Source of the DNA: Escherichia phage 6925
Direction: 5' to 3' (one strand)
Sequence record: ON637250.1
DNA: 39,100 nt
The notes beneath the pieces were generated by a model. The model was given only the letters and a program-made list of their open reading frames with translations, had not been told where the DNA came from and searched no databases. Both the position numbers and the translations under genes were made by a program. Numbering within the stretch: position 1 is the first letter of the stretch; each line of letters starts with the position of its first letter. This document shows, piece by piece, positions 20,289-23,565 of this stretch.

Positions 20289-21173
20289 ATGTCCCAATCA
20301 GTTTATGCCGAGTTCGGCGTTAGCTCTAATGCAATCACTGGTTCCGTTGAGGACCTGAACGAACACCAGAAGTCTATGCTTGAACAGGACGTAGCGGTAC
20401 GTGATGGCGACGACGCTATTACCTTCAAGCAACTGGAAGCCGAAAACGAAGAGGCTGCCGAAGAAGACGAGAACGTCGAAGAGACTGAAGGTGAAGAAGA
20501 CCACGAGTCCGATGACGAAGAGTCTGAGACCGATGGTGAACAACCTGAGTTCGTCGAACTTGGTGATGCACCTAAAGAGCTGACCGAAAGTGTCACAGCT
20601 CTGGATGAAAACGAAGCTGCATTTGACGACATGGTGTCTTCTGCTGTAGAAGCTGGCAAGGTCACTGCTGATGAAATTACCGCTATCAAGGCTGAATACG
20701 CCAAGGACGGTAAGCTGTCTGACGCATCCTACGCTAAGTTGCAGGAAGCAGGTTACACCAAGCGCTTCGTAGATTCGTTTGTCCGTGGTCAGGAAGCTCT
20801 GGCTGAACAGTATGCCGCTGGTGTGGTTCGCTACGCTGGTGGTGCTGAACAGTTTAATCGCATCCTGTCACACCTTGAGTCCAACGACCCGTCAACTCGT
20901 GAAGCACTGGAATCTGCTATCGTTCGTAAGGACATTGCTACTACCAAAGCTCTGCTGAATCTGGCTGGCAAGACTCTGGGTAAAGCTGTGGGTGTTAAAC
21001 CTCAGCGTACCATCACCACTCAGGCTAAACCTGTGGTCGCACATAAGGCTCCTCAGACCGAAGCATTCAGCTCCAAGGCTGACATGATTAAGGCTATGAG
21101 TGACCCGCGATACCTGCGTGACGCTAAATACACGATGGAAGTTCGCGCTAAGGTAGCTGCCTCAAGCCTGTAG
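20289..21173 (+). CDS. 9: Capsid assembly (scaffolding) protein
   Basis: ATG at 20289 after AAGGAG (the track ORF starts at GTG 20250 inside the stem). VYAEFGV, DGDDAI, acidic central region and C-terminal KAMSDPRY match T7 gp9 as recalled. Confidence 0.9.
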   Translation: MSQSVYAEFGVSSNAITGSVEDLNEHQKSMLEQDVAVRDGDDAITFKQLEAENEEAAEEDENVEETEGEEDHESDDEESETDGEQPEFVELGDAPKELTESVTALDENEAAFDDMVSSAVEAGKVTADEITAIKAEYAKDGKLSDASYAKLQEAGYTKRFVDSFVRGQEALAEQYAAGVVRYAGGAEQFNRILSHLESNDPSTREALESAIVRKDIATTKALLNLAGKTLGKAVGVKPQRTITTQAKPVVAHKAPQTEAFSSKADMIKAMSDPRYLRDAKYTMEVRAKVAASSL

Positions 21174-21174
21174 G

Positions 21175-21197
21175 ACTAAACTATCACTATAGGGAGA
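21175..21197 (+). promoter_or_regulatory. Phage RNAP promoter (phi10-like), strongest consensus match
   Basis: ACTAAACTATCACTATA|GGGAGA; +1 at 21192. Confidence 0.8.
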
Positions 21198-21299
21198 CCA
21201 AGAGAAAGACTCAAGGTTTCCCTATTACTTCAGTCCATACGGATTGGGCATCCAGTAAGTAATAAACTTTATCTTTCAATTGAATAGGAGAATTATCAT

Positions 21300-22349
21300 A
21301 TGGCAAACGTTCCGGGTCAGAAAGTTGGTACAGACCAAGGTAAAGGCAAATCTGGTTCCGACGCTCTGGCGTTGTTCTTGAAGGTCTTTGCTGGCGAAGT
21401 CCTGACAGCATTCACTCGCCGCTCTGTAACTGCTGACAAGCATATTGTCCGTACCATTCAGAACGGTAAGTCTGCTCAGTTCCCGGTCATGGGTCGCACC
21501 TCTGGTGTGTATCTGGCTCCGGGTGAGCGACTGTCCGATAAGCGTAAAGGTATCAAACATACCGAGAAAGTGATTACCATTGATGGTCTGCTGACTGCCG
21601 ATGTGATGATTTTCGACATTGAAGACGCGATGAACCACTATGACGTGGCTGGCGAGTATTCCAACCAGCTAGGCGAAGCGCTGGCTATCGCTGCTGATGG
21701 TGCGGTACTGGCTGAGATGGCTATTCTGTGTAACCTACCGGCTGCATCTGATGAAAACATCGCTGGTCTTGGCAAAGCGTCTGTGCTGGAAGTTGGTACT
21801 AAAGCAGACCTGAACACTCCGGCTAAGCTGGGTGAAGCAATCATCGGTCAACTTACCATTGCTCGTGCGAAGCTGACATCCAACTACGTTCCTGCTGGCG
21901 ACCGTTACTTCTACACCACACCGGACAACTACTCTGCAATCCTCGCGGCTCTGATGCCGAACGCTGCTAACTATGCTGCGCTGATTGACCCAGAGACTGG
22001 TAACATCCGTAACGTAATGGGCTTCGTGGTTGTTGAAGTTCCACACTTGACTCAGGGTGGTGCTGGGGAAACTCGTGGTGCCGATGGTATCACTATTGCG
22101 ACTGGTCAGAAGCACGCCTTCCCAGCTACTGCTACTGGTGATGTTAAAGTTGCTCTGGACAACGTTGTGGGCCTGTTCTCTCACCGTTCTGCTGTAGGTA
22201 CTGTTAAGCTGCGTGACTTGGCGCTGGAACGTGACCGCGACGTCGATGCTCAGGGCGACCTGATTGTTGGTAAGTACGCTATGGGTCACGGTGGTCTGCG
22301 TCCAGAAGCAGCAGGCGCACTGGTTTTCACAGCGGCGTCAGCGGGTTAA
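21300..22349 (+). CDS. 10A: Major capsid protein (10A)
   Basis: 349 aa; LALFLKVF.GEVLTAF, KSAQFPV.GRT, HTEKVITIDGLLTADV, AILAALMPNAANYAALIDPE, RSAVGTVKLRDLALER and KYAMGHGGLRPEAAGA match T7 gp10A. Confidence 0.97.
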   Translation: MANVPGQKVGTDQGKGKSGSDALALFLKVFAGEVLTAFTRRSVTADKHIVRTIQNGKSAQFPVMGRTSGVYLAPGERLSDKRKGIKHTEKVITIDGLLTADVMIFDIEDAMNHYDVAGEYSNQLGEALAIAADGAVLAEMAILCNLPAASDENIAGLGKASVLEVGTKADLNTPAKLGEAIIGQLTIARAKLTSNYVPAGDRYFYTTPDNYSAILAALMPNAANYAALIDPETGNIRNVMGFVVVEVPHLTQGGAGETRGADGITIATGQKHAFPATATGDVKVALDNVVGLFSHRSAVGTVKLRDLALERDRDVDAQGDLIVGKYAMGHGGLRPEAAGALVFTAASAG

Positions 22350-22612
22350 CGACCTTTAAGGCCCTCTCTACCGAGGGTCCTACCTTAGAGACGTATAGTT
22401 CTACGGTGGGAACCAGCTTGAAGGTTGACTTCCCGGAGCTTTCAGATGTGACCGACTGGTCGCTGCTTGATGTTACTACGCCTGATGGTGTTAGCTACTC
22501 CCGTAGAACCAACAGTCTCTACTTCAAGGCCACCTCTGGCGTGGAAGGTCTAGTGATTGTTGAGTATGACGGTTCGCCTGTGCGTTCCTTCAACGTATCT
22601 TTCACAAACTAA
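22322..22612 (+). CDS. 10B: Putative 10B-specific C-terminal extension reached by programmed -1 frameshift at the GGTTTTC slippery site (22322-22328)
   Basis: Heptamer G_GTT_TTC sits 7 codons before the 10A stop. The -1 frame is open for about 95 codons from the slip site to a TAA at 22610-22612, immediately before Tphi. Confidence 0.55.
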   Translation, partial: GFHSGVSGLTTFKALSTEGPTLETYSSTVGTSLKVDFPELSDVTDWSLLDVTTPDGVSYSRRTNSLYFKATSGVEGLVIVEYDGSPVRSFNVSFTN

Positions 22613-22615
22613 TTG

Positions 22616-22655
22616 AAACCCCTTGGGTGCCTTCGGGTGCTTGAGGGGTTTTTTG
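22616..22655 (+). terminator. Tphi-like intrinsic terminator for phage RNAP
   Basis: AACCCCTTGGGTGCCTTCGGGTGCTTGAGGGGTTTTTTG: a GC-rich hairpin plus T6 run, closely resembling T7 Tphi, directly after the capsid gene. Confidence 0.85.
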
Positions 22656-22669
22656 CTTAAGGAGGGAAT

Positions 22670-22759
22670 ATGGTCCTTATTTACACAGGGTTAGCACTAT
22701 TCGTTTTATTCTGGGCGTACCTTCTGTCCAGCTCACCGTCTAGTGCCTATGACCGTTAA
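22670..22759 (+). CDS. Possible mini-ORF (29 aa, one hydrophobic helix) between Tphi and gene 11
   Basis: AAGGAGGG then ATG, MVLIYTGLALFVLFWAYLLSSSPSSAYDR. The RBS and ATG sit where T7 has the gene 11 start; here an in-frame TAA separates it from the gene 11 ATG at 22772. Confidence 0.35.
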   Translation: MVLIYTGLALFVLFWAYLLSSSPSSAYDR

Positions 22760-22771
22760 GGAGTAAAACCT

Positions 22772-23338
22772 ATGGCTCAATACATTCCACTGAATGCTAA
22801 CGATGACTTAGATGCCATCAACGATATGTTAGCAGCTATCGGTGAACCAGCAGTCCTACAGCTTGACGAAGGTAACGCTGACGTCTCGAACGCTCAACGT
22901 ATCCTGCATCGTGTCAATCGTCAGGTCCAAGCTAAAGGCTGGAACTTTAACATCAACGAAGCTGCTGTCCTGACACCTGATGTCCAAGACAATAGGATTC
23001 GATTCCTGCCGTCTTACCTTCGGGTCATGACTGCTGGTGCTACCAGTTACTACAGCAACATGGGGGGCTATCTCTATGACCTGTCCACTCAGTCCACGAC
23101 CTTCACTGGACCAATTACAGTCGAACTGGTGGAGATGAAACCGTTCGCTGAGATGCCTGTAGTATTCCGTGACTACATCGTTACCAAGGCTAGCCGTGAG
23201 TTCAACGCTAAGTTCTTCGGTAGCCCAGAGTCTGAACTGTACCTTCGTGAGCAGGAAGCAGAACTCTACCAGCAGGTGATGGAGTACGAGATGGACACTG
23301 GTCGCTACAACATGATGTCCGACATCGGGAGGGACTAA
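22772..23338 (+). CDS. 11: Tail tubular protein A
   Basis: 188 aa; INDMLAAIGEP, QRILHRVNRQVQAKGWNFNI, YVTKASREFNAKFFG and MEYEMD match T7 gp11. RBS TAAGGAG. Confidence 0.93.
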   Translation: MAQYIPLNANDDLDAINDMLAAIGEPAVLQLDEGNADVSNAQRILHRVNRQVQAKGWNFNINEAAVLTPDVQDNRIRFLPSYLRVMTAGATSYYSNMGGYLYDLSTQSTTFTGPITVELVEMKPFAEMPVVFRDYIVTKASREFNAKFFGSPESELYLREQEAELYQQVMEYEMDTGRYNMMSDIGRD

Positions 23339-23565
23339 TGGCTAGTCACAACCTGAAGATTCACCGCCAGCACTTTGGTCCGGTACAACTAGGTCTAAAG
23401 ACAGCAGAGCTGAGACTTAACGACCGGGACTTTAATGTTGGCGACTGGCTTATCCTGAATGAGTGGGACAACGGGTATACTGGACAACAGGTAGCACGTA
23501 AGGTTGTCCACATTGCTGACGTTGGTGACATCGCTGAGGGATACGTCCTAATGAGTATGATTTAA
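23338..23565 (+). CDS. ASCH/PUA-like small protein (DUF3850-type signature) inserted between tail tubular A and B
   Basis: 75 aa; the H.LKI...F.PV..G.KT.E.R.NDRDF.VGDWL.L.EWD...YTG pattern fits the DUF3850/ASCH signature as I recall it. Start overlaps the gene 11 stop (TAATG). T7 has gene 12 directly after gene 11. Confidence 0.6.
   Translation: MASHNLKIHRQHFGPVQLGLKTAELRLNDRDFNVGDWLILNEWDNGYTGQQVARKVVHIADVGDIAEGYVLMSMI

Follow-up and report, generated by a model that had tools for sequence, protein, structure and literature searches.

In phage T7, about 10% of the capsid gene product is a frameshift product, 10B, that is built into capsids, and the C-terminus of gp10 is external on the T7-type capsid, as the T7 display vectors show and as display work on phage K1F agrees. 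The G_GU of T7 gene 10 is a variant of the slippery heptamer, and a CCCC sequence in the T7 terminator, more than 200 nt downstream, contributes to frameshifting (PMC5009743). The T7 extension is not an Ig-like domain, whereas that of T3 is (PMC5009743), and T7 10B is dispensable (PMC11482910). In K1F, fusing GFP to the end of g10b gave stable fluorescent virions (PMC6277420); this locus has since served for the display of BACON and Ig-like domains on some of the capsid subunits, and the engineered K1F::BACON/Ig display phages gained epithelial adherence (PMC13370021).

Here we analyse the corresponding locus in Escherichia phage 6925 (ON637250.1), in a stretch of 39,100 nucleotides that we call the window. 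The capsid frameshift feature that we found there is real but already known: its mechanism is a textbook one, and it has been annotated in near-identical phages. What we add is modest, namely the assignment of an Ig-like fold to the extension, the use of one slip site by two unrelated modules, evidence for the exchange of the tail as a cassette, and the mis-annotation of the feature in sequence records.

Gene 10 and its slip site

The window comes from a T7-like phage that belongs to the genus Kayfunavirus, and the 1361 bases around the site share 98.7% identity with Kayfunavirus EcoIv10b_Midid and 98.5% with the Escherichia phages vB_EcoP-U8 and Peacock. Pfam and PDB searches identify gene 10 as the homologue of T7 gp10A: its product matches Gp10A-like (PF21703) with an E value of 1e-104 and, among the capsid proteins of the PDB, 9vvq (E 4e-214) and T7 2xvr (E 2.8e-145). 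Upstream lies a site that would act as a phi10-like promoter, since its position matches that of phi10 as annotated in the T7, T3 and K11 records and its core, TCACTATAGGGAGA, has a single exact match in the whole window.

21175..21197, + strand: phage-RNA-polymerase promoter-like site, phi10 equivalent, ACTAAACTATCACTATAGGGAGA (core match and position)
21300..22349, + strand: gene 10A, major capsid protein, 349 aa, 36.3 kDa, zero frame (ORF list, Pfam, PDB homology)
22322..22328, + strand: slippery heptamer G_GTT_TTC, T7-type -1 shift site (register checked by script)
22328..22349, + strand: dual-coding overlap, where frame 0 encodes the 10A tail (TAASAG) with its stop and frame -1 the first residues of the 10B extension (HSGVSGL)

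The 10A protein ends in ...GALVFTAASAG. GTT and TTC of the heptamer are zero-frame codons, TTC being that of Phe343, and six sense codons (TAASAG) follow before the TAA at 22347-22349. An earlier note on this DNA, made from the letters alone, had placed GGTTTTC seven codons ahead of the 10A stop and named it as the slippery sequence of T7 gene 10; TTC is indeed the seventh codon before the stop, and the site is identical to that of T7, with A as the next base. GGTTTTC itself is not rare, a second copy lying at 1843, so it is the position and register of the heptamer that carry the weight.

Reading in the -1 frame meets no stop between 22274 and the TAA at 22610-22612, a stretch of 112 codons, 94 of which follow the slip. 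Within the gene body 28 stops interrupt this frame over 325 codons, and no gap between them exceeds 45 codons. The earlier note had counted about 95 open codons up to a stop adjoining the Tphi terminator, in good agreement with the 94 found and with a hairpin that begins two bases on. Its estimate of roughly 1% for the chance of such a frame staying open was fair, since the computed chances for 94 codons range from 0.02% (given how often stops occur in the -1 frame of the gene body) through 0.7% (dinucleotide shuffles) to 1.7% (mononucleotide shuffles). The predicted 10B protein has 437 aa and 45.9 kDa, made up of 343 shared and 94 new residues, and its predicted mass exceeds that of 10A by 9.6 kDa, within the 9-10 kDa anticipated; the extension sequence quoted in the note also matches the computed -1-frame translation. 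Digestion with trypsin is predicted to yield the junction peptide YAMGHGGLRPEAAGALVFHSGVSGLTTFK, and the predicted extension peptides include ALSTEGPTLETYSSTVGTSLK and VDFPELSDVTDWSLLDVTTPDGVSYSR.

Conservation and selection in the -1 frame

For comparison we used 28 related loci, representing 26 distinct phages from phage and IMG/VR collections and spanning Kayfunavirus, Przondovirus (KP32, K11), Caroctavirus (CR8), Ningirsuvirus (JA10, Ninurta) and a PP81-like phage. All 28 carry NGTTTTC followed by A at homologous codons, and in each of them the -1 frame stays open from the slip site until shortly before the terminator. The heptamer begins with G except in three loci (two Dickeya phages with C and one PP81-like phage with A), and the 10A tail, the linker, the extension and the position of the 10A stop (3-6 codons on) vary despite the kept site. 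The invariant core, GTT_TTC, would fit a shift driven mainly by re-pairing of tRNA-Phe from UUC to UUU.

Substitution patterns point to coding in the -1 frame. Its dN/dS is 0.156 against EcpYZU01 (dS 0.48) and 0.217 against HC12 (dS 0.78), and as judged from such comparisons the extension is under purifying selection, with dN/dS of about 0.15-0.25. When 14 distinct window-type sequences are compared, codon positions 1, 2 and 3 account for 14, 10 and 43 variable sites of the domain and for 5, 5 and 11 of the linker, the latter counted over extension codons 8-26, which lie between the dual-coding overlap and the internal GTG at 22406. The overlap itself (22328-22349) has no codon-position periodicity (4, 3 and 3 variable sites), as expected where two frames overlap. 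The other two frames of the extension region carry 5-12 stops.

Predicted fold and sequence family of the extension

The extension divides into two parts, a linker and a domain.

22328..22384, + strand: 10B extension residues 1-19, predicted disordered linker, -1 frame (AlphaFold)
22385..22612, + strand: 10B extension residues 20-94, predicted Ig-like seven-strand beta-sandwich, and TAA stop (22610-22612)

AlphaFold2, run with an alignment of 21 homologues, gave residues 1-16 as disordered (pLDDT <50) and residues 20-94 as a seven-strand beta-sandwich (pLDDT about 90), with strand 1 predicted at residues 21-26. The earlier note had taken the extension for a small beta-rich domain and had proposed structure prediction as a check, and the predicted sandwich is in line with that description. 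In this model the extension is predicted with confidence to carry a 75-residue Ig-like domain built as a seven-strand sandwich, a size that falls within the roughly 70-100 residues of the Ig-like fold class. Foldseek gave as its best PDB match the C-terminal Ig-like domain of the lambda tail-tube protein (2l04); other structural neighbours were a Hoc-like protein and the N4 capsid decoration protein, and the best fold match among viral models was the 'minor capsid protein' of Pectobacterium phage PP81. No solved structure containing the extension was found in a search of the PDB.

For phage Ig-like domains, Fraser et al. reportedly set out in 2006 the sequence families Big_2, I-set and fn3. 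The window extension had no Pfam match at E values up to 10 and did not reach the Big_2, I-set or fn3 thresholds, and none of the 21 homologues had a Pfam match above threshold (weak Big_3 matches appeared in 5/21, the best with an E value of 0.0025); the T3 extension, used as a positive control, matched Big_2 at E 4e-10. In PHROGs the extension falls in phrog_7473, a PHROG of unknown function. A profile search of 1.8 billion representatives returned only short ORFs of the same family together with weak matches to repeat proteins (BACON, He_PIG, invasin/Big_1). Among these, the BACON-repeat protein P0038 was matched with a whole-protein E value of 6e-13, which is a sum over 5 stretches; hhalign of the extension against BACON repeats gave 49-53% probability with the conserved Trp motifs aligned out of register, and the Pfam BACON entries PF13004 and PF19190 had no direct match to the extension domain. 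Conserved motifs within the extension family are (D/G)VTDWS and RRTN(S/T)LYFK. Domains of the window's type, at 60% identity or more, are present in about 136 records, and any homologue in 454 database records from at least five genera. The extension thus belongs to an unclassified Ig-like sequence family that appears confined to T7-like phages. We found no publication assigning a fold to this family, a weak negative, as subscription journals lay mostly outside the search.

RNA structure downstream of the slip site

Two RNA structures lie close to the ends of the two reading frames.

22352..22391, + strand: local RNA hairpin just 3' of the 10A stop, candidate modulator
22615..22655, + strand: Tphi-type terminator hairpin and T-run, with CCCC motif (terminator scan, RNA fold, T7 Tphi alignment)

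The terminator is near-identical in sequence to T7 Tphi. Its hairpin (22615-22652, 38 nt, -25.2 kcal/mol) is followed by a T-run; AACCCCTTGGG within it starts at 22617, and CCCC is found 9 nt past the first base of the 10B stop codon. The window thus has the distal CCCC sequence, whose stimulatory role is known only for T7.

RNA folding gave no canonical stem-loop or pseudoknot 5-9 nt past the heptamer. The 122-nt fold past the slip site has z = -2.7, yet its stems begin at least 25 nt downstream, and an Rfam scan of 21100-22800 returned nothing relevant. The hairpin at 22352-22391 (-16.2 kcal/mol) is stabler than 99.7% of the 40-nt windows of the gene body, although its block-minimum P is only 0.095. 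In a test across lineages the hairpin after the 10A stop has P 0.000 in KP32 and T7, where it is a clear outlier, and 0.05-0.1 in the window, EV136_1 and CR8, and is not significant in K1F and the PP81-like phage. A stable hairpin after the 10A stop recurs in several lineages with unrelated sequences, the statistics being mixed, and a role for that of the window as a modulator of frameshifting is possible but unproven.

Alternative explanations for the open frame

The open frame could in principle be a separate small gene of 68 aa, translated independently from GTG 22406. ORF callers list it, many relatives' GenBank records annotate it as a 'hypothetical protein', and both the protein databases and PHROG 7473 contain many stand-alone ORFs of 54-87 aa. 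An ATG overlaps the 10A stop (TAATG) in HC12-type relatives, and this could allow coupled, independent translation of an 87-aa protein in those phages; the window, however, has ACG at this place. GTG 22406 is the sole internal start codon of the extension and has no Shine-Dalgarno sequence ahead of it (AGGAG-type sites precede gene 10, gene 11 and a small ORF nearby), the stand-alone ORFs called in relatives share neither the position nor the type of their start codon, the open frame reaches the slip site in every locus, and the coding signature includes the linker. The GTG is also codon 27 of the extension and follows the predicted strand 1, so that the 68-aa product would miss this strand. 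We rejected an independent gene starting at this GTG because of the missing Shine-Dalgarno sequence, the coding signature in the linker and the earlier start of the domain, and we consider such a gene very unlikely; the first two of these points, together with the unconserved starts, mean that translation must enter from gene 10 via the slip site.

The same protein would result if the frame were changed in the RNA, by a phage RNA polymerase that stutters on the run of four T within the shift site and adds one U. The run has only four bases, however, and the known sites of transcriptional slippage have longer homopolymer runs (reviewed in PMC5009743); the homologous event in T7 is ribosomal frameshifting on a G_GU-type heptamer (PMC5009743), and it is the entire GTTTTC hexamer, beyond a mere T-run, that has been kept in codon register, all of which makes polymerase slippage highly improbable. 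It could also be argued, from the dispensability of 10B in T7 and from a natural variant (L024) that is deleted through the domain, with half of the domain and Tphi missing, that the -1 frame is open only as a relic that is not expressed, or as a side effect of RNA constraints between gene 10 and Tphi. To this we give hardly any credence, given a dN/dS well below 1, the strong third-position excess of variable sites, the confident predicted fold, the breadth of the domain's distribution over genera and records, and the mass-spectrometry matches of the CR8 record.

Proposed mechanism and function

We think that gene 10A/10B very probably undergoes programmed ribosomal -1 slippage on G_GUU_UUC, as in T7 and as the earlier note had interpreted the site; for this phage itself we infer the shift, its efficiency, the incorporation of 10B into virions and the function of its domain. 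The majority of ribosomes would stop at TAA 22347 and release the 349-aa major capsid protein, while a minority would slip back one base on G_GUU_UUC. The tRNA-Phe would then re-pair from UUC to UUU, and tRNA-Val, only partly, from GUU to GGU. Re-pairing of the latter kind in the P site is poor, which counts against the shift reading, as does the lack of a canonical stimulatory structure 5-9 nt past the heptamer. The slipped ribosomes would run in the -1 frame to TAA 22610 and make a 437-aa minor capsid protein, consisting of an HK97-fold body (residues 1-343), a flexible linker of about 19 residues and the 75-residue Ig-like sandwich.

This 10B protein would co-assemble with 10A, and the linker would let the Ig-like domain project from the outer surface; because the gp10 C-terminus is outside the capsid, some of the subunits should carry the domain on the capsid surface. 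By analogy with T3 10B, Hoc and other Ig-like decorations, for which such a role has been proposed, its most likely role would be an accessory one that the phage can do without in the laboratory, in weak binding to carbohydrate or surface structures. That any function is accessory follows from the L024 deletion variant and from the dispensability of 10B in T7.

The 10B tail as a possible exchangeable cassette

The divergence of the capsid gene and that of its extension can disagree. The window and HC12 are 100% identical in residues 1-343 of 10A (dS 0.04) but 76.6% identical in the extension (dS 0.78). Between KP32, a Klebsiella phage, and JA10, a Dickeya phage, the order is reversed, with a dS of 0.62 for 10A residues 1-343 and of 0.14 for the extension, and EV136_1 combines a Kayfunavirus capsid body (95.6% identical to that of the window) with a CR8-type extension (76.7% identical to that of CR8). 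K1F and 34 other records (35 database records) have a short T7-like tail instead of the domain. On sequence comparison, then, a single genus contains at least two unrelated tail modules that are reached through the T7-type slip site. That divergence jumps at this site and that the end at Tphi is constant argues that the tail has been exchanged by recombination, for which the conserved capsid C-terminus and the terminator may have provided homology arms. Mobile Ig-like domains are a general picture in phages, which the tail exchange of the window fits (PMC5009743).

A broader reading, which we offer tentatively and regard as possible but unlikely, is that the 10B tail of the Studiervirinae is a display cassette whose modules are swapped between genera by recombination, and that the module of the window is a natural adhesin. 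The cassette may be bounded by the slip site and capsid C-terminus on one side and by Tphi on the other, and the swapped modules may comprise the acidic tail of T7 and K1F, the Big_2 domain of T3, and the unclassified Ig-like family with at least three subtypes. A conserved hairpin after the 10A stop could tune the 10B:10A ratio. If this reading were true, many Kayfunavirus, Przondovirus and related phages would have a weak affinity for mucus, epithelium or host polysaccharide that is absent in K1F, and the module of the window would be the natural counterpart of the engineered K1F::BACON/Ig display phages.

Consequences for annotation and use

Our understanding of frameshifting itself is unchanged by these findings, which bear rather on annotation and on the use of these phages. 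Most GenBank records split the extension off as a 'hypothetical protein' or omit it, so that a structural component of the virion is missed; the correct product is a 437-aa minor capsid protein. Moreover, the C-terminus of 10B is the standard display site of T7 and K1F vectors, and many wild relatives, unlike K1F, carry an Ig-like module there. Many such phages are candidate therapeutic phages of E. coli, Klebsiella and Salmonella, and the module is relevant to the adherence of phages to host surfaces and mucus, to how therapeutic phages behave in pharmacokinetics and immunogenicity, and to which scaffold is chosen as 'non-adherent'.

Comparison with known systems

The lambda gpV C-terminal domain, T4 Hoc and the N4 decoration protein are likewise small surface beta-sandwiches, in such systems often placed on a fraction of subunits via frameshifting. 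These Ig-like decorations belong to other sequence families, and glycan or mucus binding is a demonstrated or suggested property of Hoc and T3. T3 resembles the window in that a -1 shift late in the major capsid gene adds an Ig-like domain to the product; its heptamer, however, is C_CCA_AAG, and its domain, the Big_2 match of our positive control, has no sequence similarity to the window extension.

In T7, GGTTTTC followed by A stands at the homologous codons (ALVF/VVF) of a homologous capsid protein, and the -1 ORF ends just before a near-identical Tphi with CCCC. The distance from slip site to terminator is about 290 nt in the window and about 200 nt in T7. The tails themselves differ: that of T7 has 56 aa, is of low complexity, not Ig-like and unrelated in sequence, while that of the window has 94 aa with a folded domain, and the earlier note had rightly called the extension longer than the T7 10B tail and unlike it. 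In blastp searches against the T7 and K1F tails the extension gave E values above 0.2, compared with 2e-11 for K1F against T7. K1F, the type species of the same genus, has the same heptamer and a 10A that is 95.7% identical, and display that depends on the frameshift has been demonstrated at its locus; yet its tail of 48 aa lacks an Ig-like domain and is a homologue of that of T7 (64% over 36 aa).

The closest counterparts share both the slip site and the extension. Klebsiella phage K11 and the Dickeya phages JA10 and Ninurta have the same slip site and a homologous extension, and differ by divergence only. Klebsiella phage KP32 also has this slip site, with an extension at 46% aa identity, and a -1 product is mentioned in the KP32 record as in that of K1F. 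Citrobacter phage CR8 (NC_023548), with the same slip site and an extension again at 46% aa identity, has a joined minor capsid CDS, and its record notes for 10B 'matches in mass spectrometry analysis' and a predicted -1 internal frameshift, with 'tttt' marked. Finally, in Escherichia phage Peacock (MK903279) the slip site is the same and the extension is 98.9% identical at the aa level, and its record, citing CR8, gives a two-piece 'minor capsid protein' of exactly the length that we predict for 10B.

Probable recombination and sequence context at the slip site

From position 22322 onward, at the slip site (the GGTTTTC heptamer near the end of the major capsid gene 10A), the window and its relative HC12 (locus L010) part company abruptly, their synonymous divergence, 0.04 across 10A, rising to 0.78 in the frameshift extension. 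The opposite shift is seen between KP32 (L004) and JA10 (L005), in which synonymous divergence falls from 0.62 in 10A to 0.14 in the extension. Such shifts indicate that the slip site marks a sharp recombination break.

The base directly 3' of the heptamer (22329 in the window) is A in all 28 loci compared and in T7, while the zero-frame codon that it begins differs among loci (ACA, AGC, AAA, ACC or AGT). The shift site may require this A as part of its context.

A stable hairpin is predicted after the 10A stop codon in some lineages.

22352-22391: stable hairpin in the window, with equivalents in KP32 (L004), T7 (L012) and two further related loci, L007 and L003

In several lineages the hairpin begins 1-10 nt past the stop codon, and the local sequences are unrelated between lineages. 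Its predicted stability is -16.2 kcal/mol in the window, -22.6 in KP32 and -18.1 in T7, with block-minimum P values against the gene body of 0.095, 0.000 and 0.000, respectively. No equivalent hairpin was found after the 10A stop in K1F, the type species of the genus, or in the PP81-like phage. The distance from the heptamer to this post-stop hairpin exceeds the canonical spacer; the structure may act as a termination context, stabilise the mRNA or tune the shift.

Variants of the extension

10A stop region of HC12 (L010) and of locus L023: GGGTTAATGACC

HC12-type relatives carry, in the extension frame, an ATG that shares bases with the 10A stop codon (TAATG); the window has ACG at this position. 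Judging from this arrangement, HC12-type phages might also produce the domain as a free 87-aa protein through translational coupling.

Locus 1501-1780 of IMGVR_UViG_2974604219_000001 (L024): natural deletion variant

In L024 the Ig-like domain is truncated past extension residue 53, the terminator Tphi is absent, and the -1 ORF continues in frame into a homologue of the small hydrophobic ORF described below. Either L024 represents a viable phage lacking an intact domain and terminator, or it is an assembly artefact.

GenBank labels for the extension disagree, ranging from hypothetical protein, minor capsid protein or tail protein to none at all; the IMM-002 record calls it an XRE family transcriptional regulator, and the U8 record gives the name 'minor capsid protein 10B' to the 10A ORF itself. 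Improbable host labels are attached to some T7-like records as well, for example Staphylococcus phage MBBL139, Enterococcus phage EFA-1 and Acinetobacter phage vB_Aba_01KA.

Small ORFs flanking gene 11

22658-22664, + strand: Shine-Dalgarno sequence AAGGAGG, a strong RBS for the 29-aa ORF
22670-22759, + strand: hydrophobic 29-aa ORF between Tphi and gene 11, MVLIYTGLALFVLFWAYLLSSSPSSAYDR
23338-23565, + strand: 75-aa ORF between genes 11 and 12

The hydrophobic ORF is carried by 44 phage records, all Kayfunavirus-like. Phage Peacock, 98.5% identical otherwise, lacks it, and gene 11 there starts 59 nt past the 10B stop. The ORF may encode a small membrane peptide and lie on an indel roughly 100 bp long.

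T7 has no gene at the position of the hydrophobic ORF between Tphi and gene 11, and no counterpart of the 75-aa ORF between genes 11 and 12. Enterobacter phage EV136_1 does have an equivalent of the 75-aa ORF, and its annotation there is DUF3850 protein.
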